DNA of 64,000 nt from an uncultured bacterium (GCA_902780135.1 CACZEK010000001.1:64663-128662); one strand, 5' to 3'. Counted from the first letter of the stretch, positions 36,120-56,822 are shown. Numbers and translations: made by a program. The notes: a model not told the origin generated them from the sequence alone.

Positions 36120-36148
36120 TTGACTTTCAGGGGCTGAGGTAGTATATT
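36120..36148 (+). promoter_or_regulatory. Sigma70 promoter outside the element pointing at the integrase
   Basis: TTGACT-N17-TATATT. Confidence 0.55.
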
Positions 36149-36277
36149 TTGCTTACGATTTGCTTACGTTTTTGCGTACATTTTCCCGAAAACAGGGCTA
36201 AAACGGCCCAAAAAACAAGAAAGGAACGGCTGTAAAGCGGATGTAATAATGACTGCACAACTTCACAAAACCGAGGC

Positions 36278-36307
36278 AAAAAAAAGGACTTACGATGTCG
36301 CAAGCCC
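36278..36307 (-). terminator. Terminator downstream of the duplicated tRNA-Met 3' half
   Basis: On the minus strand, GGGCTTGCG...CGTAAGTCC stem followed by T8. Confidence 0.7.
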
Positions 36308-36363
36308 TGAAAAATCTTTGGTAGCGGGGGTTGGAATCGAACCAACGGCCTCCAGGTTATGAG
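36308..36363. repeat. att direct repeat (left junction): 3' half of initiator tRNA-Met plus trailer
   Basis: 56/56 identical to 53852-53907; identity stops at the edge of the anticodon loop (CTCATAA). Confidence 0.97.
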
Positions 36364-36431
36364 GGTACTCATTCTGAGGTCATTTAGAAAGGTAGTTCGG
36401 TTTCTGTTAGGTTACGGGAGTAGTCTGACAG

Positions 36432-37778
36432 GTGAAAAACAAAACCACTCGCCGTACCAGAGGAACAGGGGCAATCTTCAAAAGAAACGGGAAATTCCTT
36501 TACCAGTGGAAGTGCATTACTGGAAAGATTAAGACAAAGACGCTGAGAGCAGGCACATTGGAAGAAGCGGAGAAAGAAATTGAAAGCATTCTCCAGGAAG
36601 AAATCAAGCTGTCTGCCATTGATTCAAAGATTACCTACATGCACCAGATTGCAGAAGCAAAAGCGCTTCTGCATGTGTGCCGAGTTCCTTTGACGGAATT
36701 GGAGGATGCTTTTTTCTCTCATCCCTCTGCACCGACCGTTTCTCCCAAGCATAGATCCAATTACCATTCCATTCTTACATCCTTCGCAGACTTCGCATCT
36801 CGTATGCAGGCGAAAATTGCAGCAGACGTTACGGAAGAAATCGCACAAGCGTATCTGACCTACTACTGGAACAGGGGAGTATCGCCGAAGACGTACAACA
36901 GTGTGCTGAACATGCTTCAATGCGTCTTTCGCTTGTTGTGCAAGGACAACAATCCATTTGCCGAGTTCAAAAAAAGACCGGGACAGATAGAGGAACGTGT
37001 GCCATTCACGGTTGAACAGCTTCAGAAGATCTGGGAGACGCTGAACTCCCCCACATACCACATGCTGCACAAAGAGGAAATGATCGTCCTCTACAAGCTG
37101 GCGCTTTATACTGGCGCTCGTTGTGGCGATCTCTGTCTGTTGCGCTGGTCCTCGGTCGATATGCAGAACAGAGTTATTCGGTTCATGCCCCACAAGACAG
37201 CCCACAGCAGCCACAAGATCGTGGAGATTCCCATTGGTGACGTTCTTTATGAAGCGTTGTCTTCGCTGGACCTGAGTACCGACTACGTTCTTCCGAATGT
37301 TGCATATCGGTATCAGCACAATTCAGGGGGCATATCAAGAGACACGAAAAAGCTGCTGGTAGCAGCTGGACTGAAACCGAACGATTCCGGGACTACTCGT
37401 CGTGTACTTGCTGTTTCGAGAATGGGCTTTCATGGATTCAGGCACACAGCAGCGTCTATGATGATCTGTAACGGCGTCAATCCTCTGGTCGTGCGTGATC
37501 TTCTGGGACACACCTCGGTCGATATGACGGCGCACTACACTCACGTCAACCTTGAGACGAAACGAGAAGCCCTGCAGAACCTGAACGTCCTTCCGTGTCT
37601 TCCTCAACCGAAACTCATCGGTGGAGAGAAGCCCATCTCTGAAATAATCAGGGAACTAAGTACAGAAAAGCTCGCCACTCTCGGACAATGGCTGGACGAC
37701 AACTTGACAATCAACCAAAGGGAAAGACTGCGAGAGTTACTGCCCTTTGCAGGGAACGAAGTAACCGTCGCCAGTTAA
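36432..37778 (+). CDS. Tyrosine recombinase/integrase with N-terminal arm-binding domain
   Basis: RRTRGTGAIFKR N-terminus; catalytic TGAR, FHGFRH, LLGH, TAHY. Confidence 0.95.
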   Translation: MKNKTTRRTRGTGAIFKRNGKFLYQWKCITGKIKTKTLRAGTLEEAEKEIESILQEEIKLSAIDSKITYMHQIAEAKALLHVCRVPLTELEDAFFSHPSAPTVSPKHRSNYHSILTSFADFASRMQAKIAADVTEEIAQAYLTYYWNRGVSPKTYNSVLNMLQCVFRLLCKDNNPFAEFKKRPGQIEERVPFTVEQLQKIWETLNSPTYHMLHKEEMIVLYKLALYTGARCGDLCLLRWSSVDMQNRVIRFMPHKTAHSSHKIVEIPIGDVLYEALSSLDLSTDYVLPNVAYRYQHNSGGISRDTKKLLVAAGLKPNDSGTTRRVLAVSRMGFHGFRHTAASMMICNGVNPLVVRDLLGHTSVDMTAHYTHVNLETKREALQNLNVLPCLPQPKLIGGEKPISEIIRELSTEKLATLGQWLDDNLTINQRERLRELLPFAGNEVTVAS

Positions 37779-37791
37779 TCGACAAAAGCCA

Positions 37792-40215: not shown

Positions 40216-40251
40216 GTCTACTCTCCGAAAGTAAAGCAGCCGTCTTTCTGC

Positions 40252-43089: not shown

Positions 43090-43157
43090 AGTGCTGACTC
43101 CTTGCGTATTTGATTCGGTTTTGTTCCAATGTAGCCTGTTGATTCCGTCTGGCGGTC

Positions 43158-46139
43158 TTATCCCTTCTCCAGAACCTCGTCGATAAATTTCCTGAAATCC
43201 GCCTCGATGTCGAAGAAAGACTCGAACTGGGCGAACCTCCACTGCCCATAACTTCCGAGGTTATTCACCGCTGGAACCCAAAGGTTCTCGGTGGTCAATC
43301 TCTTGTCGTTGACCTGTTCGTTCTTAAAGCCCTTGATCTCGACAATGAGGCGAACGTCGTTGTCGAGGACGACAATGAAATCCGGGAAATAGAGGTGCCG
43401 TTCACCGCTGACCAGATAGGGGATGGAGAATCCGAGGTTATGGTTCTTCACATACGCCTTGACGCGAGGGTGATCTTCCAGAACCCTGCACATCTCTCCT
43501 TCCCAGTCAGAATCCAGTACAGCGTAGTTAATATGGCATCGGGAAGATGTCTCCCAAAGATTGGTTTTTGAGGTCGTAAAGGAAACGTTCGAGGTTGATC
43601 CGGTCGGATTGAACGGATTGATGATGGCGACAGGCCCTCTATTTTCGCTGCCAGGAACCAAAGCATTTGTTATACGCTCACAAGCCCGGTCTGCAAGTGT
43701 TTTGTAGAGGATTTGAGCGGGGTATGCTCCGCCCTTGCAGTGAAGATGATTTTTGACCCAGTCGGAGACAATAGCCTTGGCTTGACCGAAGAGATAAAGC
43801 TCCGGGTCTTCTCCAGGCTTCTTGAAATGCCGTTCAAGAAGGCACTGCGTGAGGTTGTAGATGATGGTGTTCGTACGGACGTTCTGCAAATGTTCGACCG
43901 AAAGAGTGACGCCTTCACCGACCACCGGTTCATTTTTGACCTTGCACGGACCGACTTCTTCAGGAGAAAGCAGGAAATCATGCTCGGGTTTCCATTTCGC
44001 CACGAGCTTGCTGGACTTCATATCGACACGATAGCCGTCAATGTTCGGGAATAGGATTTCCACATCGTTGCGATCAGGTATCACCGCATGAACAGAGACC
44101 ACCTTTCGAGGAGGAACAGGTTTTACAGGGACAGCTTTGCCTGTGAAGTCGAACGGAATACCGAAAATATCCGCATATTCAGCAGGGAACAGCCCGTTTT
44201 GGTCCAGATCATAGTTGGAACGCCTGAGTGCTCGACCAATGACCTGTTCGCAGATCAGCTGTGTACCGAATGCACGAAGACCAAGGATGTGGGTGACGTT
44301 GTTTGCATCCCAGCCTTCCGTCAGCATGGAGACGGAGACAACGCAGCGAATATCTCCGCCAAGCTTGCCTTCTTTTCCAACCGTATTCATGATTTCCCGG
44401 AGGAGATCGGAGTCTGTGAGCTTGTTTGCTTCTTCCGCACTGCCTGTACGTTCGCGGATTTCACGTTTGAACCGCTCGATTTCGTCCTTTGCTGCTGCTC
44501 GGAAATCGTCGCTCAATGCTTCTCCTGATTCCAGCTGCATGCTGTCAACCAGGATGGTACGGGGTTTGGGCAGAGGATTGCCGGATGCATCATAGTTGCT
44601 GAAAAGCGGACATTGCCCTGCTCGAAACGAGGTGTTTTCAGAGAGTTTGTACCCCGAAACGTAGTCGTAAATGAGCTTGGAAATGGCTGTGTTCTGACAG
44701 ACGAAGATAAAGCACGGAGGCGTTGGCATCTTCGCTTCTTCCCATTGATCGAACGTCTTTTCGTAGTGCCCGTACAGCTGGTCAATGGCGGTACACAGTT
44801 CAGCAGGAAGCTTCGCAGGGTCAAGCACTCCTCCGTTCTCACGGTTTTTCTTCGGCATCTGTGAGCCAACATGCTTCCATAGTTCACGGAAAACCGGGAT
44901 TTTGTCTGGATGTGGGTCGTTGTCTGCGACAGGAACACGAGGCAGCTTGACGATACCACACTCGATGGCATCCATGAGAGAGAAATCCGAAACGGTCCAT
45001 GGGAAGAGTTTGCCCTCGGAATAACCGGAACCACGCAGGAAGAACGGCGTAGCGGAGAGATCGACCACACGACACTTCATCTTGCGGTTGACAGCCTCCA
45101 ACCCGGAAATCCAGAGACGTGCCATTTCCTTTCGCTGATTCAGCTCGTCGTTTTCATCCTTCGTCCCTTTGTCCTCTGCCTCATCGTGAGGCTTCTCTCG
45201 ATAGCAGTGATGAGCCTCGTCATTGATGACCAGGATATTCTTGAAGCCCATCAGCTCCGGCATGACCCGTGCAAGCATCTGGCCTTCTGTTTCCTGTGTT
45301 TCGATCTGTGGACCATGACGCCCGTTCAGCAGCGCCTTCGTTCCTTTGGAGAGTTCCAGCAGGTCCTTCCGCTTGAAGACATGGTAGTTCGTGATGACGA
45401 TCTTCGCCTTCATGAGTTCGTTGGCGTAGTCCTGCGGAATAAGCTCGCGTCTCAGGTAGTAGGAATCTGGATCGTTGGGTTGCAGTACACGCAGCCTGTC
45501 CTTGATCGTCAGTCCAGGTGCAACGACCAGAAAACCCTTCGTGAAATACTTGCTGCTTGGATGTCGTACAGCATTGACCGTCTGCCAGGCGATAATCATC
45601 GCCATGACCGTTGTTTTTCCTGCTCCTGTAGCGAGCTTCAGGGCAATACGGTACAGGTCAGGGTTGGCGTCTTCATTACCGGTCTTGATGTGTTCGAGGA
45701 TGTCCTTCCATTGCTTGTTGCCGGGTGCAACCTCAGTGAGCCAGATCAGGACCTCGACAGCTTCGATTTGGCAGAAGAACGGACGTTGATTCAGGAAATC
45801 GTGTGTTCGCCAGTGATGAAGCAATCGTGCAGTCTCAGGCGTAACACCCCACTGCCGTTCCGGAAGATTGCGCCATGCAGAAACGGCGGTACGAATACGG
45901 TTGATCCACTCGTACTCTGCGTACTGTTGACCGTCTTCAACATCGTCAAGCTCGAACTCGGTCTGAACGTAATCATCTCCGGTGGAGTGCTTCGCCCTTG
46001 CCACTGGGGATGTGTACGAAGCTTTCCGTCGTCCTTCCTCAATCACGTTCGTGGGCTGGCCTGTGTCGTCCAGCATCCAATGGCGAGTTGGGATTTCATA
46101 CGGGGAGTTCAAAACCGGACTGTCGAAAAACTCTGCCAT
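43158..46139 (-). CDS. res: Type III restriction endonuclease (Res, BPTD_3080-like family)
   Basis: ATGAGKT, NDEAHH, LSATP, LTEGWD, EQVIGRALR helicase motifs; YFPDF...IVEIKG PD-(D/E)XK nuclease. Confidence 0.92.
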   Translation of the reverse strand: MAEFFDSPVLNSPYEIPTRHWMLDDTGQPTNVIEEGRRKASYTSPVARAKHSTGDDYVQTEFELDDVEDGQQYAEYEWINRIRTAVSAWRNLPERQWGVTPETARLLHHWRTHDFLNQRPFFCQIEAVEVLIWLTEVAPGNKQWKDILEHIKTGNEDANPDLYRIALKLATGAGKTTVMAMIIAWQTVNAVRHPSSKYFTKGFLVVAPGLTIKDRLRVLQPNDPDSYYLRRELIPQDYANELMKAKIVITNYHVFKRKDLLELSKGTKALLNGRHGPQIETQETEGQMLARVMPELMGFKNILVINDEAHHCYREKPHDEAEDKGTKDENDELNQRKEMARLWISGLEAVNRKMKCRVVDLSATPFFLRGSGYSEGKLFPWTVSDFSLMDAIECGIVKLPRVPVADNDPHPDKIPVFRELWKHVGSQMPKKNRENGGVLDPAKLPAELCTAIDQLYGHYEKTFDQWEEAKMPTPPCFIFVCQNTAISKLIYDYVSGYKLSENTSFRAGQCPLFSNYDASGNPLPKPRTILVDSMQLESGEALSDDFRAAAKDEIERFKREIRERTGSAEEANKLTDSDLLREIMNTVGKEGKLGGDIRCVVSVSMLTEGWDANNVTHILGLRAFGTQLICEQVIGRALRRSNYDLDQNGLFPAEYADIFGIPFDFTGKAVPVKPVPPRKVVSVHAVIPDRNDVEILFPNIDGYRVDMKSSKLVAKWKPEHDFLLSPEEVGPCKVKNEPVVGEGVTLSVEHLQNVRTNTIIYNLTQCLLERHFKKPGEDPELYLFGQAKAIVSDWVKNHLHCKGGAYPAQILYKTLADRACERITNALVPGSENRGPVAIINPFNPTGSTSNVSFTTSKTNLWETSSRCHINYAVLDSDWEGEMCRVLEDHPRVKAYVKNHNLGFSIPYLVSGERHLYFPDFIVVLDNDVRLIVEIKGFKNEQVNDKRLTTENLWVPAVNNLGSYGQWRFAQFESFFDIEADFRKFIDEVLEKG

Positions 46140-46676
46140 GGGGTGTCCTTATGCTTTCTCCGTTCGTTTGAGGTCGGAGTGTTGCCGTTCATGTTGAAGC
46201 TGATTGTGCAATACTGTACTACAATCTATATATAAAATCAAGAAAATAGTTTCGATTTTAAAGTTCTTTTTGCGATAATCGTCTGAATATAGCCGTGTGA
46301 TACGGTCCAGACAAGTGAAAACAGAGCCATCTCCAGCATGAAATATCCCGTGGGAAAGGTATTGTTAAGCTCGCAGTAATCTATCATCAAAAAAACTGTA
46401 AGCACATAGAAAGTGCATTTTCAATATATTAAATTACCGTATTTACAATATATAGTCTGTTCAGATATCTTTTGGAATTGCATATTTTGTATTTAAAAAT
46501 GCAGTTTTGACTATGAGGAATGCATAGTACATTTGTTTTAATATAAGGACATATGCGCACATGCGCGTTATTAATATCCACTCTGAAATGAAACAGGAGA
46601 GAGAGTAGATGGCACAGATACGCACAGGATACAAGCGCAGTCAACATGACCCTCATCAAAGCAATCAGGAAGGATC

Positions 46677-46716
46677 AGGGGCTGATGCAGAATCTCACAG
46701 GCATGCATCAGCCCCC
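46677..46716. repeat. Perfect 13-bp inverted repeat, 14-nt loop
   Basis: AGGGGCTGATGCA / TGCATCAGCCCCT. Confidence 0.85.
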
Positions 46717-47093
46717 TTTCCAACCTCTCCGTCCAAAAGGTTATTCGTCTTCGTAAAAGGTGCTGTCCAGCATTGCTCTGGAGATTTCAGATCCATGTGC
46801 AGAACCTTTCGAAAAACATTCCCTGGCTTTTACCCTGTCTATCTCGTATTATGTACTCGTCACAAAATATTTTAGCCAAGTGAAGTAACTGTTTTCCGGG
46901 AATGGCGTTCTATAGCATTTGGATATATATGACAATGGTGAGTCATAAAGACACGAATATTTTCGGAAGTGTCTTCTGCGTTGAATACAACAATCCGCCA
47001 AACTTGATAGGATGTCCAGATGAGGCAAACATCGCCTTTGTCTGCAATCTTTCACCAAGTTAAACATAACTTTAACCAAAAGAGAAAAACAGT

Positions 47094-47204
47094 ATGGAAA
47101 AAGAAATTGATTCGAACAGAATGCTGGAAATTGCCACAGGAACATTTATCGCTATGTTGGCGTATGGAGTCATCAAACTTATCATCAGGTCTCTGTGCGA
47201 TTAA
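47094..47204 (+). CDS. 36-aa single-TM peptide (not in the ORF track)
   Basis: MEKEIDSNRMLEIATGTFIAMLAYGVIKLIIRSLCD, followed by an 11-bp hairpin. Confidence 0.45.
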   Translation: MEKEIDSNRMLEIATGTFIAMLAYGVIKLIIRSLCD

Positions 47205-47224
47205 ACTCAAGGCAGTTCTCCACA

Positions 47225-47255
47225 GTCCTACCGGATAGAATATCTCCGGTAGGAC
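47225..47255. terminator. Hairpin between convergent small ORF and YagK-like gene
   Basis: GTCCTACCGGA / TCCGGTAGGAC perfect 11-bp inverted repeat. Confidence 0.6.
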
Positions 47256-47338
47256 ATTCCAAATATTTGGATCAGTTTTATCTTATTAACAAATGTATTT
47301 CTTTTGATAATTAATACACCAGTTCTGAATGCAAGTGA

Positions 47339-47881
47339 TTATCTTTTTATTCTGGAAGTGAAGAAAGTTTTTCCTTTAACACCTTCTTTTTGATCTGTTT
47401 TTGCCAGATAGCTTACTTGACGCTGTGCTTCATGTAAATCTGTTAAATCAGGATTATCTCGGTGAATCATAATTCCATTTCTATGTCCATCGTTACAATA
47501 ATGAACTGAACCACCTGGTCCTACAGTATTCTGAATGACTTTTTTCATGTTTTCAAAATGCGGATAAGTACTTTCTGTTTTTTCCCCATTCACGAATAAT
47601 ACCATGTGATAGTGGACTTTACCTTTTGAGCTTATTTCTCTTGCTACGATATGCGCAGGAGCATAGCCAGCATTTTTCTCTTTTTCAATATACCGTTTGT
47701 TAATTCTTATAATAGCTTCTTGCTCTGTTCCTTCTGGAAGATGTATATCCTCTCTTATTACAAGCGTTTTAGCGTGTTCGTTAATATAGTTATTCATGAG
47801 TTTGAAAGATGCTTTTAGAATCTTTTTGTTCATTGGGATATTGAGAACACTTGCAGTTGAAAGAAATTCATCATCGTTCAT
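47339..47881 (-). CDS. YagK/YfjJ (inovirus Gp2-like) HUH endonuclease domain protein
   Basis: KTLVIREDIHLP, ARE...HYH (HUH), NGIMI, SYLAK (catalytic Tyr), KTFFTS. Confidence 0.8.
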   Translation of the reverse strand: MNDDEFLSTASVLNIPMNKKILKASFKLMNNYINEHAKTLVIREDIHLPEGTEQEAIIRINKRYIEKEKNAGYAPAHIVAREISSKGKVHYHMVLFVNGEKTESTYPHFENMKKVIQNTVGPGGSVHYCNDGHRNGIMIHRDNPDLTDLHEAQRQVSYLAKTDQKEGVKGKTFFTSRIKR

Positions 47882-48137
47882 ATATTTTTCCTCATTAGAT
47901 TATTTCGATTGTTATATCTGTTGATATTTAATAGAGAAGATCGTTTAATAGAGTGTTATATAGTAATATATATTATCCTTTCCCTTAGACGGGTAAAAGC
48001 CATCTTAAAATAATTGATGTTTTGAATGAGACATCAAGTTTTAGGTGTATATGACACATCGGCATATAATAATATTAATCATGTAAAGATTTATTATCTT
48101 ATACAAGTTATCGTCACACAAAAAAGGAGCATTAAAT

Positions 48138-48611
48138 ATGGACAACAATGAATCCAACCCGTTAGAAAGAATAGGAGAACTTCTTGAACAATATCTGAAC
48201 ATGTTTGGCCAGGCCAGAGTAGCTTTTTATTCAATTCCACTTTTTGAAGATCCTGAAAGCTATTCCAATTACATGAATTCCTTCACGTCTGCTTTAAGAC
48301 GAGCGAATTGCCGCCCAGCCTATGCGATGTCCTATAATTCCAACAGAGGATGTAGAAACATTCTTTTGATTGTTCAGGGATACTTCCGGAACGATATGAA
48401 CGATGTCACGGATGCAGCTCAGAGGATTATGCAGCTGTACTCCCCATTTCCAATTCAGTTTATAGCTGATCTTCCGATGAATTATGCCACGCTAGATCAG
48501 GACAAAATGAGAGTATTCGACGCCATCAACAGAATAGGTTTTCTTCCTTCATCTCCTCAAAGGCTTCTGCCTCCGCATACACGAACTTTTGCCATTTCAA
48601 AACTCTATTAA
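48138..48611 (+). CDS. Degenerate YagK/YfjJ-like paralogue lacking HUH and Tyr
   Basis: Colinear similarity to 47339-47881 (PAY, ILLIVQG, RTFAISK); catalytic residues absent. Confidence 0.55.
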   Translation: MDNNESNPLERIGELLEQYLNMFGQARVAFYSIPLFEDPESYSNYMNSFTSALRRANCRPAYAMSYNSNRGCRNILLIVQGYFRNDMNDVTDAAQRIMQLYSPFPIQFIADLPMNYATLDQDKMRVFDAINRIGFLPSSPQRLLPPHTRTFAISKLY

Positions 48612-48802
48612 AAGTCCTAAATAGCGGAAAAACGAGTAAAATTAGACAAAAAAAGGCGTTTTTAAGCTATTTTTGAGCATATTTTTGCCATAAAAGCCTG
48701 TTTTTTACCTTAAAAACGATTATCAAGGGAATTTAAGCATATATTCCTCCACCGAATATCAAAAATTGACATTTCACCACTAACCCTATTTTGGAGGTAA
48801 CA

Positions 48803-50341
48803 ATGCAAATTCCCGTAATCAAAAACGAATTGGCCGGAGCCCTGTCGGCTCTGGGGAAGCTGGTCTCCCGGACGTCTCTCATCAAGGCGTATCAGGGGAT
48901 CGAAATCGAAGGCAAAGCGAACATGCTTTACTTCAGGACCCGAAACGTGATTGAGCAGATCGAATTCCGGCTGTTTGCCGACCTGGAAAATGATTTCCCG
49001 GCAATTCTCGTGGAGTTCGAGCAGTTCCGTCAAGCGGTTCGTAACTGCAAGAACAAAACGCTGAAGTTTGAGATTGACTGTCGCGAGGTCTTCATCGACG
49101 ATGTCAAAATGGCTCCTGTCAAAGGGAGTTTTCCACAGAAGGAACAAGTCCCGGATCAAGATATCTGCGTCATGGAGCTTCCTTCTGACACGCTTTCTGC
49201 GCTGTCTTTGCTCGCTCCTATCACCGACCGTGACACGAATGCCAACAAACGGGCAGATACCCGTAGGATTCTCACGGGAATCAACATCAGCGGAGATGGA
49301 TTCACCGCCACAGACGGCAAAGAACTCTCGAACATCCCTCTCAAGCTCGGAACGAATGGAAGCATCACGATTCCATTTCCCCTTGCCTTGCTTGCGACCA
49401 AAGCCTTTGGCGAATCCGGTCGTCTTTGCACATGGCAGAAGAATGAAGACACGCATTTCGATCTTACTCTCGGCGAATGGACGTGGTCTGGCAAGGCTCT
49501 CAACGGAAATTATCCAAAATGGAAACAGATCGTGTCTGAACGAACAGATGCGACGCATTATGTGAACATTCAAGATGACCAAGCTGAACATTTGATGCGT
49601 TATTTGAAAAGCATCCCGGATGATCCGAGGAACTTCAACAGCGTTAAGGTCAGCCGTCTTCCTGATGCTCCGGGCAATCTCCACCTCGAAAGCTCCAACG
49701 GCATGCTGTTCAATATCCATGCCGAGTTCGATCCGAACTGGAACGGTTTAGCGTTCAGGGTCAGAAAAGAATTCCTTCTGCATCTGCTGGATGCTGGACA
49801 TCGGAAGATTGAACTCAACGATGAGTTAAGTCCGATTGTCGGAACAGGTGGCTGTGGCAAATATATCACAATGCCCATTCGTTCCGCAAAACCGAAACAG
49901 GAAGCGTCCAATCAAATGGAAACACAGACCAATATCCATCCTGAACAGGACGAGCCTCAGACCATCCGAGAAGAAGAGGAAACTGTTTCCGTGCAGAATC
50001 CACCTCACCCGCAGGAAAGCACCCCTCAAACCCCCATTCCCAATACCAACCTCAACAAGGAGAACCCCACTATGGAAACCAACAACATCACCCACGTCGA
50101 GTCTGCTCCCGTTCAGACTTTCACCCCGAATCATGAATCTGCAAAGGCGTTGCCTTCGATTGACGAGCTGATTGCCGGCATTGAAGCGTTCAAGTCCACA
50201 CTGAAAACGCTGTCGGATGAATCCGCCGTCATGAGCCGCAGAATTCGCGAGTTCGCTCTTGCGCAGAGACAGAAAGACCGCGAATACAAGCAGACCAAAC
50301 GCACACTTGATCGTGTTCGTGTTGCAAGCGGAGCTGCCTGA
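48803..50341 (+). CDS. DNA polymerase III beta-clamp (DnaN)-like protein with C-terminal extension
   Basis: TRRILTGI, TATDGKEL, KALNGNYPKWKQIV, KEFLLHLL, KYITMPIR ending at residue 360; GGAGG SD. Confidence 0.8.
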   Translation: MQIPVIKNELAGALSALGKLVSRTSLIKAYQGIEIEGKANMLYFRTRNVIEQIEFRLFADLENDFPAILVEFEQFRQAVRNCKNKTLKFEIDCREVFIDDVKMAPVKGSFPQKEQVPDQDICVMELPSDTLSALSLLAPITDRDTNANKRADTRRILTGINISGDGFTATDGKELSNIPLKLGTNGSITIPFPLALLATKAFGESGRLCTWQKNEDTHFDLTLGEWTWSGKALNGNYPKWKQIVSERTDATHYVNIQDDQAEHLMRYLKSIPDDPRNFNSVKVSRLPDAPGNLHLESSNGMLFNIHAEFDPNWNGLAFRVRKEFLLHLLDAGHRKIELNDELSPIVGTGGCGKYITMPIRSAKPKQEASNQMETQTNIHPEQDEPQTIREEEETVSVQNPPHPQESTPQTPIPNTNLNKENPTMETNNITHVESAPVQTFTPNHESAKALPSIDELIAGIEAFKSTLKTLSDESAVMSRRIREFALAQRQKDREYKQTKRTLDRVRVASGAA

Positions 50342-50484
50342 TTCATCCCTGCATCGTCTCCTCCCGACATGGATTTGAACTTAAATTTAGGCTACAATTT
50401 TTATTGTAATAGTTATTATACATTATATAGTCAGAGCTATTTTGCTTCGAATACATTAACCACAACCAACACAGGAGAAATGCC

Positions 50485-50913
50485 ATGGCAAAAACTCTCG
50501 AATTATTCTATGCAATCAAAAACGGTCAGCCATCTGTCCAGATCCATGTCACAGAGATCGTCGAAGGAAACATCAAGGACAAGCTCCAGGAGATGATGAA
50601 CGATCTGCCTGGGCCAATCGCCGAGTCATTGAAAGGAGTCCCACCAGCACGCCTTATATCGGACGATGAGGTGAATGTGCAGGATGTTTCTGTTCCGAGC
50701 AAGAAGACGTCAACGCCAAAAAAACAACCATTCCAAGCAGGGATCGGTGAAACAATTACCGAACGGCAATTATATTGCATCAAGAAACACCTGGAAAAGC
50801 AAAACCTTGACGAAACCGCTTATTGTCAGTCGTTTGGCGTGAATCGACTGGAAGACCTCCCCAAAAGTATTGCTACTGACATTGTTAGCGAGATTAAAAG
50901 TAAGAAGTACTAA
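50485..50913 (+). CDS. Hypothetical protein, paralogue of 51208-51672
   Basis: AGGAG SD; C-terminal ITERQL...FGVNRLEDL...IVSEI helical domain. Confidence 0.75.
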   Translation: MAKTLELFYAIKNGQPSVQIHVTEIVEGNIKDKLQEMMNDLPGPIAESLKGVPPARLISDDEVNVQDVSVPSKKTSTPKKQPFQAGIGETITERQLYCIKKHLEKQNLDETAYCQSFGVNRLEDLPKSIATDIVSEIKSKKY

Positions 50914-50939
50914 CCTCACCATTCAACATAGAGGATTTA

Positions 50940-51110
50940 ATGATGCAAGCTAAAATTAACGTATCGATCCCGCTGGAACACTGCGAGATCATGTTCGGTC
51001 TGGTGGATACACTCGAGCAAAAAAACGAAAACGATCCAAAACTTGTGGCGATGATCGACCTGATCCAAAAAATCGTTGAGCGGTATATGAACGCCAAAGA
51101 AAAACACTGA
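50940..51110 (+). CDS. 56-aa hypothetical protein (not in the ORF track)
   Basis: GAGGA SD; MMQAKINVSIPLEHCEIMFGLVDTLEQKNENDPKLVAMIDLIQKIVERYMNAKEKH. Confidence 0.6.
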   Translation: MMQAKINVSIPLEHCEIMFGLVDTLEQKNENDPKLVAMIDLIQKIVERYMNAKEKH

Positions 51111-51146
51111 AACCAATAAACCAAAATTCATCGAATAACCTCCCGA

Positions 51147-51177
51147 ATGACCACGACGGCCTGCCCGTCGTGGTCAT
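51147..51177. repeat. Perfect 13-bp intergenic hairpin
   Basis: ATGACCACGACGG-CCTGC-CCGTCGTGGTCAT; no T-tract. Confidence 0.85.
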
Positions 51178-51207
51178 GCTTTAACCTCAAATCGAAAGGA
51201 AATCACT

Positions 51208-51672
51208 ATGCTCAAACTCAACACCGCATATGCAAAGAAAGTCCCAGCCGATGCTGACTATTCCAGCCAGTCGTACCACGTCTCCATGGAAATCGAACTT
51301 CCAGACGGACTCACGCCTGACCAGATCAATGCGAAAATCCACGAAACCTTCGATCAGCTCCGAAACAGCGTGGAGGCCGAATTAAAAGGAAATCCTGTGC
51401 CTTATCAGACGGCTTCTCTTCCGATGGAAAACGCCCAGAACTCCCAGCAGGTGGCTTCTGCACTGCAGCAGAAAAATTACGGTAAGAGGAACGGCACGAC
51501 CTCTGATGCTCCGGCATCTCCCAAACAGATCAAGTATCTCCTCGACCTCGCAAAGATGTACGGCGTTTCGCCCGATCAGATCAAGGTCAAGTTCAACGTA
51601 TCCTCAGTCGAAAGCCTGACCAAAATTCAGTGTTCCAAAGCCATCGACGAGCTCAACGGAAAGGCGGCGTGA
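51208..51672 (+). CDS. Hypothetical protein, paralogue of 50485-50913
   Basis: AAGGA SD; C-terminal ASPKQI...FNVSSVESL...AIDEL domain. Confidence 0.8.
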   Translation: MLKLNTAYAKKVPADADYSSQSYHVSMEIELPDGLTPDQINAKIHETFDQLRNSVEAELKGNPVPYQTASLPMENAQNSQQVASALQQKNYGKRNGTTSDAPASPKQIKYLLDLAKMYGVSPDQIKVKFNVSSVESLTKIQCSKAIDELNGKAA

Positions 51673-51674
51673 AC

Positions 51675-52466
51675 ATGGAACGTGAAATTGAATCCATCCG
51701 CGATACGCCTCACTGGTCATACAGCGCGTTTCAGACCTATCTCGCCTGTCCCATGCGATATTACTTCCGGTACATCGAACATGCCGAGGTGGAGCGTACT
51801 AACGTCAGTATGCCGTTCGGAAGAGCGTTTCATGCGATCTTGAGCATCCGCGCGAAGAAGGGCATCTGTTACACGCTGGAAGACGCAAAGGAGGATTTTG
51901 CAGTCTATTTCCGAGGTGAAACTGAAGCAAGCGAAAACATTTCGTACAAGCCTGATGAGGACTACTGGTTCTGGAATCAGCGTGGCTGCGACATGCTGGA
52001 CGTGGCTCTCGCAGAATGGCCCGACGACTACAGCGTGAAGTCTGTTGCCGAAGCTTTCAGCGTGGAAGTGCCTAGTCTCAGCAAGCCCCTGGTCGGAGAA
52101 TTTGACCTTGTTACTGTTGACGGTGGAGACGAGACCATTTGCGACTGGAAGACTGCTTCTATGAAGTGGCCGAACGGAAAGGCAGATCGTGATCTTCAAG
52201 CGACCGTTTTCACCTACGCCTATCAGAAGAAGTATGGAGAGAACCCTCTGTTCCGGTTTGACGTGTTCACAAAGGCAAAAACGCCTGCTCATCACCAGTT
52301 CTACACGCTCAGAACTCAGGACGATTTCGACCGTTTTGTTTACCTCGCCGGGAAGATCGAGAAGGCCGTCAACACTGGTATCTTCCTTCCGGTCGAATCC
52401 TGCATCAACTGTGCCGAATGTGCTTACAGCAGCCGCTGTAAAGCTGCTCACAGGAAGGCAGCGTGA
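51675..52466 (+). CDS. PD-(D/E)XK nuclease, Cas4/AddB-like with Fe-S cysteines
   Basis: WSYS...LACP, GEFDLV, ICDWKT, Q...Y, C-terminal CINCAECAYSSRC. Confidence 0.88.
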   Translation: MEREIESIRDTPHWSYSAFQTYLACPMRYYFRYIEHAEVERTNVSMPFGRAFHAILSIRAKKGICYTLEDAKEDFAVYFRGETEASENISYKPDEDYWFWNQRGCDMLDVALAEWPDDYSVKSVAEAFSVEVPSLSKPLVGEFDLVTVDGGDETICDWKTASMKWPNGKADRDLQATVFTYAYQKKYGENPLFRFDVFTKAKTPAHHQFYTLRTQDDFDRFVYLAGKIEKAVNTGIFLPVESCINCAECAYSSRCKAAHRKAA

Positions 52467-52469
52467 CGC

Positions 52470-53198
52470 ATGGGACTGATTATGCAAGAAGGCAAGTTTG
52501 TCAGCAGAGACGAAGTTGCTCATGTTGACACCCCCTGTTCAACCGCCACATGGCGACCAATTCCCCATATTGACGTCATCGACGCTGTGACAAAAGTCGT
52601 CCGAGCCCATGACTGGGAAATCGAGGGTGAAAAGTTTGGTCTTGCCAGAGAAGGACAGAAGATGTTCGGAGTAGTGGAAATCTCCCGTTCATCCTCACCG
52701 GAATGGCATCGTTGCATTGGGATTCGTAACAGCCACGACAAATCCTTTGCTGTTGGGCTGTCTGCTGGAATCGTCGTCTGTGTCTGCACGAACATGGCAT
52801 TCGGTGGTACAACGGTAATCAAACGTCGCCATACAAGCGGTATTGAACTCGCTGAACTCATTGACCGGGCTGTAGCCTCTCTCGAAGACGATTTCCTGAC
52901 AACCGAAACCGTATGCGAGGATATGAAGGACCTCTACCTCAAAGACGATGACGAGGCTCGGAGTTGCATCGTGCGTGCTGCCGAACTTGGCGTTATCAAT
53001 TCGTCCGACATTCTCCCAGTCTATCGTGAGTTCAAGGAACCTTCGCATGAGGAGTTCAGAGAACCGACACGCTGGAGTCTCCTGAACGCGTTTACAGAAA
53101 CCGTGAAGAAATACTCGCCTCAGCGTGTGGATCATTCCTACCTCGCTTTGAACAGAGCCTTCGGCCTGGACGGTCGTCAAGCAGCGATCTTCGCCTGA
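52470..53198 (+). CDS. DUF932 domain protein
   Basis: TATWRPIPH, IGIRNSHDKS, VCVCTNMAF, WSLLNAFTE. Confidence 0.85.
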   Translation: MGLIMQEGKFVSRDEVAHVDTPCSTATWRPIPHIDVIDAVTKVVRAHDWEIEGEKFGLAREGQKMFGVVEISRSSSPEWHRCIGIRNSHDKSFAVGLSAGIVVCVCTNMAFGGTTVIKRRHTSGIELAELIDRAVASLEDDFLTTETVCEDMKDLYLKDDDEARSCIVRAAELGVINSSDILPVYREFKEPSHEEFREPTRWSLLNAFTETVKKYSPQRVDHSYLALNRAFGLDGRQAAIFA

Positions 53199-53225
53199 AA
53201 AAAGCTCAATCTGAATTCAGAAATT

Positions 53226-53269
53226 GTTCAGTCGGGGTAGAGGCTTTGTTGCCTCTACCTCGATTGAAC
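53226..53269. repeat. 19-bp imperfect hairpin ending the clamp operon
   Basis: GTTCAGTCGGGGTAGAGGC / GCCTCTACCTCGATTGAAC (two G-T pairs). Confidence 0.75.
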
Positions 53270-53354
53270 TCAAATTGAACACAAATCTTTTTGGAGGGGA
53301 AAAATGTTCACCAGAAAAAACAGCTTCATCCCACAAGAACCACCCGCTGACGCT

Positions 53355-53447
53355 ATGAAATGGATTGGACGGCTTCTGCTGACAGTAGTTGCCGGGATCA
53401 TCCTCGCCAAGTTCGGCGTTCGTCTTCCTGATAACATGAAGCTGTAA
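53355..53447 (+). CDS. 30-aa hydrophobic peptide (not in the ORF track)
   Basis: MKWIGRLLLTVVAGIILAKFGVRLPDNMKL; no obvious SD. Confidence 0.4.
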   Translation: MKWIGRLLLTVVAGIILAKFGVRLPDNMKL

Positions 53448-53822
53448 TACCTTGGAGAAGTCGTAATCGGCTTCTCTTTTTTGGTCAGGTAGCGGTTGTT
53501 GGTTTTTGTCTTGTGAATTTGGGTGATGATCTGTCCACACCCGTTATAATCGAAGTGAAAACGCAAGGTAGCAGGTCCCGTATAAACCGATGGCGGGTTG
53601 ACCCGTCTTGCAAATAACCGCGCGGATCCATCCTGTCGTTTGTTGCGGGGGAGAGAAAAGGTAGCTCGTCAGGGCAAAACCTGCTTGACTTTTCCTGAAA
53701 ACGTGTTAGGTTATTGTTAGGTTATCGTTAGCCTAACAAGGGCCAAACTGCCGTTTGGAACGGTTCCAAGCGGTAAAAAAATACCTACAATAGCGTTCTT
53801 CCCAACTTCGCAAAACTGAGGC

Positions 53823-53850
53823 AAAAAAAGGCCATCCGTGACGGACAGCC
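53823..53850 (-). terminator. Element-supplied terminator for tRNA-Met
   Basis: Minus strand GGCTGTCCG-TCA-CGGATGGCC followed by T7. Confidence 0.75.
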
Positions 53851-53851
53851 A

Positions 53852-53907
53852 TGAAAAATCTTTGGTAGCGGGGGTTGGAATCGAACCAACGGCCTCCAGG
53901 TTATGAG
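53852..53907. repeat. att direct repeat (right junction)
   Basis: Identical to 36308-36363; overlaps the intact tRNA. Confidence 0.97.
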
Positions 53908-53937
53908 CCTGACGAGCTACCTCTGCTCTACCCCGCA
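53863..53937 (-). tRNA. Initiator tRNA-fMet(CAT)
   Basis: 75 nt, CAT anticodon, unpaired 1:72, A11-U24 pair (initiator hallmarks), encoded CCA. Confidence 0.9.
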
Positions 53938-54296
53938 ATAACGTGTATCATATACTATATTCCGTTTTCCGGAAAATACAAGCCGGAAACCGAAAAAAAA
54001 GCGTTTTCTGCCTGAAAAAAGGTTCCGTGTATCGTATTGTCCAGGTGACATCTCCTTCCGATTCCGAGGTGCGGGGGGTGTTTTCTGCCGGGATCGAGGG
54101 GCGGCGATTTGATTTTTCCGCGCTTCGCGGTATATTATAGCGGCGGCGTGGAATGCGCTCCGCGTTTGCAGCCGGGCGCGGCGCGACCCTGTCTCGCGGC
54201 ATACGCCTGCGGGACCGCTGCCGAACGGAAAGCGGTTTTGCCGTGAAGCCGTCCGTTTCAGCCTGGGCGCGATGCCCTCGGGAAAGGAGATATGAC

Positions 54297-54872: not shown

Positions 54873-54949
54873 GGGGTATTAGCTCAGTTGGCTAGAGCGC
54901 CTCGCTGGCAGCGAGGAGGTCATGAGTTCAAGTCTCATATACTCCACCA
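54873..54949 (+). tRNA. tRNA-Ala(GGC)
   Basis: 77 nt, G3-U70 identity pair, CCTCG-CTGGCAG-CGAGG anticodon arm, CCA; upstream TTGACT-N16-TATATT. Confidence 0.95.
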
Positions 54950-54951
54950 TT

Positions 54952-56262
54952 TGATATGCATAGGGTTTTTTGGACAGTTCCGGATGGAATTCCAAAATGC
55001 CCTTTACTTTTTTTCGGCCTCGAACTTTCGCTCCGCCTCGCATGGGGTCATCATCCCCAACCTCTGATGAGGTCGCATGTTGTTGAAAAACTCCACGAAG
55101 TCCAAAACATCTCGCCGCAAATCCTCCAGAGTGTCGTAGTAGTTGTGGGAAAGTTCTTCCCTCTTCAGACATGCAAAGAAGGATTCCATAACTGCATTGT
55201 CCAAAGGTGTTCCCGGATTTGAAAACGACTGTTTAACTCCAAGGTCCCGCAAATGCTTGCGGAATGCGTATGCGGTATACTCCGTTCCCTGATCGGAATG
55301 AAAGGTCAAGTGATTTGGTCGATTCCGTTTTTCGTATGCAGAATCAAAAAGCCTTATCATGAAACTGGCACTGGTATTTTCCGTGACATCACAGGCTACC
55401 ACCACGCGAGCAAACAGGTCAATGATGACGGCGACGGAGCACAAGACATCTTTGACATAAACATTGGAGAAATCGCTCACCCAAACGAGATTCGGAGCCG
55501 CTGTCTGAAACTTGCGTTGGACTTTGTTACGATAATACTTGTACTTCCGATTAGTCGTTGAATAATAACGGAGTCGCACTTGCTTGCAGACCAGCCCCAT
55601 TTCTTTCATGAGTCGGGAGATATGTGCTTCGCTGACCTTATATCCTTTTCGTTTGAGTTCATGTTTGATTTTCCGTGCCCCAAATCGTTCTCGGCTATCG
55701 AAAAAGATTTGCTTCACGATGGGACGAATCTTGTCATCATTGAGTTCATACCATTTTCGAACAGGAGCGCGTAGTTTGTGATGATAGTATGTCGATCTTA
55801 AAACGCCTAAAGAATTGCACAGGATATAAACGGAATAATCGGATTGCATCTGGTCAATCGCTGCAATTTTATACTCCAGAGGAACTTTTTGTAACAATCC
55901 ACTGCGATGAATAATTTCATTTTCCGTCCTGAGAGTTTGTATTTCCCGTTCAAGACGGTAAACATCCTCCGGAGTAACAGTGCGACGACATTTTCGCTTG
56001 ATTGGGGTATATTTCTGGATCCAGTTATACGCAGTGCTTTTACAAACACCAAACTTTTTACATAGAGCTGTGACTGGTGTCCCCGCACGGTACAACGCAA
56101 CAAGTTTCGCTTTTTTCTTATCAGTTTTCATGCTTGTTTAACCATTCATGATGAAGACTATGTCAAAAGCACTTATCATACAGAAACCTTTTCTTGTTCG
56201 TTTTTGTTGAGTTCAATGGTCATGTCTATTATTGTAATATATCCAAAATCCCGTTGATTACA
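54952..56262 (-). mobile_element. IS3-family insertion sequence (far end uncertain)
   Basis: TG-N18-GGACA IS3-type end at 54952; weaker candidate partner ends finishing at 56182 or 56262. Confidence 0.7.
55004..56131 (-). CDS. IS3-family transposase (OrfA-OrfB in one frame)
   Basis: HTH N-terminus; WVSD, FHSDQG, DNAVMESFF...KRE DDE triad. Confidence 0.93.
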   Translation of the reverse strand: MKTDKKKAKLVALYRAGTPVTALCKKFGVCKSTAYNWIQKYTPIKRKCRRTVTPEDVYRLEREIQTLRTENEIIHRSGLLQKVPLEYKIAAIDQMQSDYSVYILCNSLGVLRSTYYHHKLRAPVRKWYELNDDKIRPIVKQIFFDSRERFGARKIKHELKRKGYKVSEAHISRLMKEMGLVCKQVRLRYYSTTNRKYKYYRNKVQRKFQTAAPNLVWVSDFSNVYVKDVLCSVAVIIDLFARVVVACDVTENTSASFMIRLFDSAYEKRNRPNHLTFHSDQGTEYTAYAFRKHLRDLGVKQSFSNPGTPLDNAVMESFFACLKREELSHNYYDTLEDLRRDVLDFVEFFNNMRPHQRLGMMTPCEAERKFEAEKK

Positions 56263-56760
56263 AGAAAAATGAACATATAGTGGTATCTTATATTTTTTCC
56301 CCGTAAGAGTCAAGTGTTTTTCTGAAAAAAGAGGATGTTAGGATCAATGATCACGGTCGCTGAAGGCATAGACGGCGGCTTCGAGCTGGGCTTTTGCGTT
56401 GGAGGCGTTGATGACGGCTGCAAGAAGACTTATAACATAGCGCAGGAACGCCGCTTTGTCAAGGGGAAACCGGCATCATTTCCCGAACAGAACTTTTTTC
56501 TGACTTTTTTGATAAAACGATTTGATTTTTGCGAGAAACATACTATATTAATTATTGTACTTCATTTGGGGTATGGGGAATTACTGTTTTGTTGACGAGA
56601 GTCAGCATAAAGAATTCTCAGTTCTTTTTCAAATCACGAGAGAAATTATTTGAGGTTGACGCCGTTTTGGGTTTTGGTCCCTAACAAACTCGCTTCTTCC
56701 TCGGAATAACTGGTCTGCTTTTTTCGGTGTTTCTTCGCAGGAATTGACCGAAAAGCACAG

Positions 56761-56822
56761 TCTGAGCTCAGACCGGATAAAGATAGGAGGACGGTAGTCC
56801 GAATCTCGGGTACTCCACCATT
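56761..56822 (+). pseudogene. Decayed tRNA-Ala-like copy / att relic
   Basis: AGCTCAG, GGAGG, GTCCGAATCTC and TACTCCACCATT are colinear with tRNA-Ala(GGC); the anticodon arm is missing. Confidence 0.45.

Follow-up and report, generated by a model that had tools for sequence, protein, structure and literature searches.

An inverted copy of the initiator tRNA 5' half beside a predicted outward promoter in the attachment region of tRNA-fMet-targeting islands of rumen and gut Victivallales

Described systems and the island at the initiator tRNA gene

According to the usual description, an island that targets a tRNA gene carries no more of that gene than its 3' part. The class-I elements, which integrate at the anticodon loop and were reportedly set out by Williams in 2002, are said to carry just this part. 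The reverse-orientation elements of Zhao and Williams, also from 2002, reportedly bring the 5' part of the target gene and a promoter, co-oriented with the gene, and rebuild the gene in this way. A further system with some resemblance to the present locus is fimS, an invertible promoter switch driven by the tyrosine recombinases FimB and FimE. As far as the expression of int is concerned, the closest cases are ICEclc with its Pcirc promoter and ICEKp1 and ICEEc1 with a promoter at the 3' end. These are outward promoters that drive int after excision, and the int gene of ICEKp1 is located behind the adjacent tRNA gene, whose promoter drives it when the element is integrated (PMC5812530; PMC13023037). 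In the KplE1 system (IntS/TorI) the integrase represses its own gene through binding sites that overlap att (PMC2951348).

The locus analysed here lies in a window of 64 kb, by which we mean the whole stretch of DNA that was studied. A tyrosine-integrase island of 17.5 kb occupies positions 36364-53907, with a G+C content of 48% against about 62% for the host, and its cargo comprises a type III restriction-modification pair, a PD-(D/E)XK nuclease, a DUF932 protein and a YagK/YfjJ-type protein. The island abuts an intact initiator tRNA-Met(CAT) gene (tRNA-fMet, 53863-53937, minus strand), found by ARAGORN and by Rfam (RF00005, 64 bits), which has the initiator hallmarks of a 1:72 mismatch and A11:U24 in its sequence and is the single initiator-type tRNA gene in the 94%-complete genome. 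The att sites are exact repeats of 53 nt. One of them, attR (53855..53907), runs from the anticodon loop to the 3' end of the tRNA plus 8 nt, and the other, attL (36311..36363), holds the displaced chromosomal 3' part of the tRNA; the identity stops at the first base of the anticodon loop. On the other side the similarity of the two att ends runs on through the terminator as far as 36253 and 53798, which means that along with the tRNA 3' part the island supplies a terminator of its own (53850-53830, within the element-borne copy of the tRNA downstream region at 53798..53862, minus strand). The intact gene is made up of a chromosomal 5' part (53908-53937) and a 3' part supplied by the island.

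The integrase gene int (36432..37778, plus strand) encodes a protein of 448 aa with a PF00589 match over residues 193-373 (E 5e-25) and a SAM-like N domain, and NCBIfam gives Xer- and integron-type matches that are under their cut-offs. It adjoins the displaced tRNA 3' fragment and not the intact tRNA, which puts the inverted half described below into the integrase-distal arm and about 180 bp from the end of the island. In this arm there are candidate arm-type repeats GTTAGGTTA at 53705 and 53716 (plus strand) and an inverted form, GTTAGGCTA, at 53729-53737 (minus strand), together spanning 53705..53737. The integrase-proximal arm has one GTTAGGTTA repeat at 36406..36414 (plus strand), 18 nt before the start of int. 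These three are the only exact copies of GTTAGGTTA in the 64 kb, all inside the att arms. A second GGTAG.TCG motif in the int-proximal arm (36389) was discarded because it is absent from other elements. The catalytic domain, the att direct repeats with an intact tRNA gene and the repeats in two arms are those of a tRNA-targeting island, and the site appears to be empty in genome G001. The contiguous arm-core-int stretches that were found are all hybrid tandem junctions, none of them a proven circle, and the element's own C' half-site has little similarity to the tRNA half-site.

A second, smaller island of low G+C content is apparently present further along the window (54873-56822), at a tRNA-Ala(GGC) gene (54873-54949). 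Beside this gene is an ORF of 375 aa (55004-56131, minus strand) that is probably an integrase, and a 74%-identical copy of the tRNA-Ala 3' end lies at 56785-56822; this island has no inverted copy of the tRNA 5' half.

The layout at the initiator tRNA is like that of the class-I elements, in that the block of identity stretches from the anticodon loop to the 3' end, the tRNA is restored by the element and the core has arm-type repeats on either side. Unlike those elements, this island carries a 5' part as well, inverted and about 240 bp away. It also differs from ICEKp1, since its int is at the far end, by the displaced 3' fragment.

The inverted half and the outward promoter

The inverted copy occupies 53640..53683 (plus strand) and reaches from about 4 nt of the 5' leader to the anticodon stem of the initiator tRNA, as delimited by a repeat search and by homologous modules. 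It consists of a copy of tRNA nt 1-30 (53644-53673, plus strand), a mutated loop of 6 nt, GCAAAA (53674-53679, plus strand), that replaces the 7-nt anticodon loop CTCATAA, and CCTG, the 3' strand of the anticodon stem (53680-53683, plus strand). The copy of nt 1-30 is identical to the tRNA at 27 of 30 positions, the mismatches being T8G, C13A and G15A, and all three fall outside an exact run of 15 nt, AGGTAGCTCGTCAGG (53659-53673), that adjoins the loop. An earlier note on this DNA had quoted the block with its exact 15-nt run, and both are borne out at 53644-53683 on the plus strand. It had also put the block in the opposite orientation to the tRNA at a distance of about 220 nt; the repeat search confirms inverted arms of 34 nt at 53640-53673 and 53908-53941, 88% complementary and 234 nt apart. 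Its description of a CAGG/CCTG stem that is kept and a CAT loop that is destroyed agrees with the CCTG and with the GCAAAA that stands for CTCATAA.

We compared the 5' and 3' parts of all 47 tRNAs with the whole 2.84-Mb genome by blastn-short. The region 53644-53673 is the sole 30-nt copy of a 5' half among the 47 tRNAs (90%, E 7.7e-4), and the only other long match of the initiator tRNA in the genome is the expected att copy of its 3' part. The remaining matches are exact 15-18-mers or a 23-nt match of 91%, with E from 7.7e-4 to 0.05, and are taken as chance. For the inverted half chance is further excluded because 22 other genomes and 26 metagenome loci have this inverted copy at the same position.

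A 581-nt query from the region, anchored neither on the copy nor on TTGAC, was run by BLAST against 40 relatives. It returned extra inverted copies near the tRNA or near a displaced att copy in G005, G010, G012, G014 and G023; there were 6 of these copies, and CTTGAC follows each of them, as it does the copy of the window. Pattern searches of 251 Victivallales genomes, with the candidates checked by eye and by fetched loci, found the module (inverted half, 11-14 nt, TTGACT) in 23 genomes from 9 genera and 2 families. The window's family accounts for 13 of them (5 genera) and the second family for 10 (4 genera). One metagenome scan gave 71 pattern matches, 26 of which were real modules. The conservation of the copy and TTGAC as a pair is partly ascertained, because most modules came from searches anchored on both; an inverted-pair pattern that allowed 3 mismatches was as noisy as the control. 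The half is inverted relative to the tRNA in all modules and lies about 230-300 bp from it wherever the tRNA is within the locus. It spans a few leader bases to nt 31 and in the rumen group continues through CC(T/G)GG of the anticodon stem. In 35 of 35 unique modules the loop is not CTCATAA, and this holds also for those whose half agrees with the tRNA at all 27 scored positions. The earlier note had named related elements as the place to look and absence from them, together with a lack of transcription on either strand, as the outcome that would count against it; the half is present across 9 genera, which makes it a conserved feature and not a one-off scar. Judged from these comparisons, the inverted half is a conserved part of the attachment region in tRNA-fMet-targeting islands of rumen and gut Victivallales. 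Our literature search did not find an inverted target half in an attP arm described, and this feature of an attachment region is apparently undescribed.

Several smaller features were seen around the half. The only module with an intact CTCATAA is in L157 (G197:C19, 218-260), where the stem that follows is altered (TCGGG) and the contig ends before the tRNA. In several genera a second conserved motif, close to ATCGCATGGATAGAG, occurs 0-15 nt upstream of the half (for example L071 1470-1500, L064 and L060), and it resembles the start of the half itself (GGRTAGAG). With arms of the GTTAG type this motif is found again, inverted (CTATCCAT), past the arm repeats, and the window has a degenerate version, GCGGATCCATCC. 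In a subgroup (L068 from G005, L077, L124, L125, L126 and L130) the half is directly preceded by an A-run and by one or two GACGGGCTATCCCCGTC hairpins; an RNA reading through from the tRNA promoter would here have a U-tract straight after the long-range helix.

Beside the half lies a predicted sigma-70-type outward promoter (53685..53712, plus strand) with the -35 box TTGACT at 53685-53690, a 16-nt spacer, a TG at 53704-53705 and the -10 box TAGGTT at 53707-53712. It points to the att core, and the inverted half ends 11 nt before its -35 box. A simple promoter scanner missed it because it scores only 8 of 12. We aligned the 35 unique modules and scored the promoter elements against random positions. 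The spacing from the half to TTGACT is 11-14 nt in all 35, and the -35 box is TTGACT in 34 and TTGACA in one. TAnnnT follows 16-17 nt past TTGACT in 32 of 35, compared with 2.3% at random positions, and the three modules that lack it at this spacing are truncated or rearranged. The TG of an extended -10 (-15/-14) is present in 27 of 35. The promoter is always directed at the att core, and the arm-type direct repeats of the aligned modules start at the -10 box; in the window the distal-arm repeats (53705..53737) overlap the -10 box and the predicted transcription start. Taken together this is good comparative evidence that the conserved TTGACT/TAnnnT would be a regulated sigma-70-type promoter facing the att core. 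We counted 74 distinct real tRNA-fMet loci whose downstream sequence extends for at least 330 nt. The promoter and the copy are both present in 32 of them and both absent from 42, and no locus has the promoter without the copy. A second unit of copy and promoter is found in L091 (metagenome contig LXOW01188350.1, 1380-1481), away from any att core, so the half and the promoter stay paired even there, before a prepilin-like ORF. This ORF begins about 60 nt on and its start resembles a prepilin-type N-terminal methylation motif (MKKQVRRFTLVELFVV...).

There is no promoter-like site between attL and the start codon of int. With int having no detectable promoter of its own, the outward promoter would, after circularisation, read about 250 nt across attP into int, and it is predicted to be of the Pcirc type, driving int only after the ends join. 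This is like ICEclc, ICEKp1 and ICEEc1: an outward promoter at the int-distal end that is upstream of int only once the ends join, a tRNA target and a tyrosine integrase. Unlike in those elements, the promoter activity is here predicted from sequence alone, and the portions of the two papers at hand (PMC5812530; PMC13023037) mention no inverted 5' half of the target beside the promoter.

Two other comparisons fail on the structure of the half. Like the reverse-orientation elements attributed to Zhao and Williams, the island carries a 5' part of the tRNA gene, but this part is inverted, its loop is altered, no promoter-like site precedes it and it is the element's 3' part that rebuilds the gene, so we reject a reverse-orientation att site. 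Short inverted repeats around a promoter segment of about 240 bp, with a tyrosine recombinase gene nearby, are reminiscent of fimS. Unlike fimS, however, the crossover sequences of the two arms differ (the loops do so in 35 of 35 modules; that of G197 is intact), flipping would split the only initiator tRNA gene, and the flipped state, in which the tRNA promoter region would precede the half, was seen in no module. An invertible promoter switch was rejected on these grounds.

Exchange between islands and copying from the host gene

The integrase of the window (36432-37778) and that of the G005 island (L067 754-2190) are 75% identical overall, a value made up of about 97% identity over the core-binding and catalytic two-thirds, from about residue 180, and a first stretch of about 60 aa that is unrelated. 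As arm repeats the window island and L086/L087 have GTTAGGTTA on both sides and the G005 island has TTTGCGTACA on both sides, and the L087 integrase, which is 92% identical, goes with GTTAGGTTA arms. The type of arm repeat therefore co-varies with the N-terminal domain of the integrase, and the copy with TTGACT is common to both types. This covariation points to a unit that can be swapped as a whole and that in the circle forms one contiguous stretch, from the arm repeats over the core and the arm repeat to the integrase N-domain; the copy with TTGACT would thus stay with the conserved core-recognition part of the integrase. The mosaic of the two integrases looks like a natural domain swap that re-targets arm binding. 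Additionally, one variant of copy and loop occurs with 4-5 different types of arm repeat, and the converse is also found, with the junction at TTGACTTT.

Tandem and hybrid junctions are frequent (L077/L087, L121, L122, L142, the remnants in G012 and G013, and the left flank of the island in the window). The copy-core-int stretches of L121, L122, L142 and L077/L087 were considered as true attP circles and rejected, because their arm types are mismatched, as in tandem junctions. The left flank of the window island holds the distal-arm remnant of an older related island (36120..36318, plus strand), with a TTGACT-17-TATATT promoter at 36120-36148, TTTGCTTACG repeats and a terminator, and without the inverted half. 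From CTTGAC on this remnant is about 92% like the arm of the G005 island, and before that point it is unrelated. In tandem arrays, the window included, the promoter of the old arm faces the int of the next island; the old promoter at 36120-36148 now faces attL and the resident int. Such old distal arms lie between the chromosome and the displaced tRNA 3' fragment and are cut at differing points: the G012 remnant (L065 3130-3460) retains the -35 box and the half, and in the G013 remnant (L012 1480-1715) both are gone.

Two other insertions at the same tRNA are of different kinds. L015 (G039:C161, 1500-3077) belongs to another family and has, in order, an intact tRNA, about 45 nt, CTGCTACCG repeats and int; its integrase is full-length and 26% identical to that of the window over 384 aa, and the layout is conventional. 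It could serve as a model of the ancestral arrangement. In L010/L065 (G012:C87, 340-3215) the intact tRNA is separated by an insert of about 2.8 kb from a displaced fragment that is longer and begins in the D-arm; the first ORF of the insert (MSTYLYY...) is Cys/His-rich and by its looks a putative transposase.

The copies follow the tRNA genes of their hosts. The copy in G023 has the variants CAGTGG and CTTG of its host's tRNA, that in G024 has CATTGG and CTCATC of its host's, and in G089 one position is host-like and another ancestral. The match extends to 3-6 nt of the host-specific 5' leader, as with ACGT in G215, G217 and G208, TTAT in the window's genus and CATGT in G037. That the copies carry both the host tRNA variants and the leader shows concerted evolution at the DNA level between the half and the adjacent tRNA gene, by copying from that gene, and it argues against roles that need just the sequence of the mature tRNA. 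The copies of the window, of the G010 type and of G077 have several mismatches from their respective host tRNAs, and that of G077 is typical of another genus, which suggests a recent transfer. By hand count there are about 8 independent substitutions in nt 1-17 of the copies and about 9 in nt 18-31, around half of them transversions. Given this even spread, the bases adjacent to the loop are not visibly more constrained than the rest, and the substitution counts gave neither extra constraint on the integrase-proximal bases nor substitutions that preserve RNA pairs.

Possible roles of the half

The reading we favour, with a probability of about 0.4, is that the half is a non-recombining pseudo-attB half, that is a core-type integrase site in cis, coupled to a circle-activated promoter. 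The half would offer the integrase an inverted copy of that part of its chromosomal target that the island does not otherwise carry, and it would be identical, for the core-binding and catalytic domains, to the half-site on the 5' side of attB. This identity, together with arm-type sites about 45-60 bp away, suggests that the integrase may occupy the half. An integrase bound there (at about -50 to -80), along with the arm sites over the -10 box, could shut down or tune the circle-activated promoter, which by analogy with KplE1 IntS would amount to a tight negative autoregulation; and/or the half may help to organise or lock the attP/attR complex. The altered overlap or loop would prevent recombination at the half, so that the sole initiator tRNA gene would not be split. 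As in KplE1, sites for recombination proteins overlap the int promoter, which predicts negative autoregulation. Unlike in KplE1, where the promoter is in attL by int, the promoter here belongs to the opposite arm and would reach int only in a circle or a tandem array, and the extra site copies a chromosomal core half and is not of the arm type. The window's half, with three mismatches outside the loop-adjacent 15 nt, has the appearance of a slightly decayed example. In favour of this reading are the anatomy of the element, the conservation of the module, its coupling to the promoter, the sharing of copy and TTGACT by islands that have the conserved part of the integrase in common, the lack of a promoter-like site before int, and the altered loop.

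Several results count against the pseudo-attB reading. Binding of the integrase leaves the match at the acceptor-stem end and over 3-6 leader bases unexplained, and the evenly spread substitutions, the intact loop in G197 and the dissimilar C' half-site were also weighed on this side. The persistence of the half could moreover be neutral, because a deletion could take away the half and spare the promoter only if it ended in the 11-14 nt ahead of the -35 box. The functional element suggested in the earlier note is plausible.

The main rival is a functionless fossil, which is possible, if doubtful in our view. The half would then go back to a single aberrant event of the distant past, such as an inverted recombination, or be what is left of a conventional junction from tRNA to arm site to int. 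It would be kept by its position against an essential promoter and because the tRNA gene, at a distance of about 250 bp, would refresh it through gene conversion or template switching. The host tRNA variants of G023, G024 and G089 and the local leader in the copies fit such copying at the DNA level. Even substitutions, about half of them transversions, are as expected for neutral change, and the window, G010-type and G077 copies are several mismatches off their host tRNAs. A full-length homologous integrase with 26% identity also exists, within the same taxonomic order, in the conventional layout of tRNA, arm repeats and int. This bears on the relic of an inverted integration that had been proposed earlier: the proposal may describe the origin; the block has the look of a fossil tRNA-to-arm-site junction, and there is this homologous integrase in the conventional layout. 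What speaks against a fossil is that the arm has otherwise diverged beyond recognition, with many indels between genera, yet the half and its 11-14-nt spacing are kept in every tRNA-proximal arm seen. Furthermore, a variant lineage, GAGAAAAGGTTGGTCG, is unconverted with at least 5 arm types, so conversion would be too infrequent by itself to explain the retention; and conversion requires prior homology and explains neither the origin of the half nor the lack of deletion.

A role as an RNA duplex in cis is unlikely. Here the half and the tRNA 5' half would pair (about 30 bp) in transcripts that span the junction, by read-through from the tRNA or read-out from the island and in the integrated state only. 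The duplex would mark the RNA for RNase III or for pausing or termination, and so insulate the island body from the tRNA promoter or neutralise antisense tRNA. The earlier note had pointed to antisense pairing of this kind, and the fold supports it to a degree: a minus-strand RNA of 53636-53941 pairs the two arms at -120.8 kcal/mol, against -83.6 +/- 5.7 for shuffles (z = -6.5). The match also reaches into the 5' leader, which is part of the primary transcript, and the A-run of the G005-type modules gives a U-tract right after the helix. However, this U-tract is missing in the window and in most modules, for which reason a split terminator with the tract behind the helix was also discarded; a good terminator stands between the tRNA and the half, and the conserved promoter starts downstream of the half, so that its transcripts do not contain it. 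The pairing itself fares poorly in the comparison of modules, where about half of the substitutions are pair-breaking transversions and the transitions have no clear bias towards preserving G-U pairs beyond base composition.

The same partner could be used to sense integration, a reading that we rate as improbable too. The half has a partner, the chromosomal tRNA 5' half about 240 bp off, only when the island is integrated. Bridging by the integrase or an RNA duplex might then trap or silence the outward promoter and spare the essential gene antisense firing, and excision would free the promoter into int. We found no description of such a pseudo-substrate or decoy logic for site-specific recombination.

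Less credible again is a homology linker, in which the copy and TTGACTTT, as the sole sequence common to diverged islands that stack in tandem, would allow the exchange of integration modules or the deletion of competitors by homologous recombination. The joining of the same copy-and-loop variant to 4-5 arm-repeat types, and conversely, with the junction at TTGACTTT, agrees with this, as do the common tandem and hybrid junctions and the integrase mosaic at the N-terminal domain boundary. The exchange points, on the other hand, fall outside the 30-nt half, in the 15 nt or so to the right of the loop. Exchange may also be an evolutionary consequence that needs no selection, and the inverted orientation would stay unexplained.

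Drosophila copia primes with a 5' fragment of the initiator tRNA, and the copies here track the host tRNA sequence, both of which could be held in favour of a trans-acting tRNA-half mimic RNA, as once suggested for this block, or of a pairing site, such as a primer-binding site, for the host initiator tRNA or for its 5' half. We regard this as very improbable and have dropped the mimic RNA: ARAGORN found only the three real tRNAs and Rfam at E <= 1, over 53200-54100, only the real tRNA, so an RNA gene was rejected; a consensus scan upstream of the half gave no promoter-like site, and a terminator (53454-53477) lies about 170 nt upstream; the predicted promoter is downstream and points away; the match includes leader bases that are missing from the mature tRNA; and the D-arm changes of the variant lineages are not compensatory. 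A folded attP of the CTX type was rejected because the sole partner of the half is the chromosomal tRNA 5' half and the excised element has no complement; a native chromosomal feature, because the half is absent from G001 and from other element families at the same tRNA; and a general habit of this genome's islands, because no other tRNA of the 47 has a copy of its 5' half and the tRNA-Ala island has none.

To the usual 3' part of the target, a whole family of islands in at least 9 genera of rumen and gut Victivallales adds an inverted 5' part, with a crossover that is almost always dead, joined to a putative int promoter. The module is a useful marker with which to annotate such islands and their frequent tandem arrays in metagenomes. 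If the half binds the integrase, it would be a pseudo-substrate in cis that regulates the recombinase or its gene and a simple means of sensing integration. Should it have no function, it still offers a clear example from nature of a mobile element and an essential host gene that evolve in concert across an inverted repeat of 250 bp.
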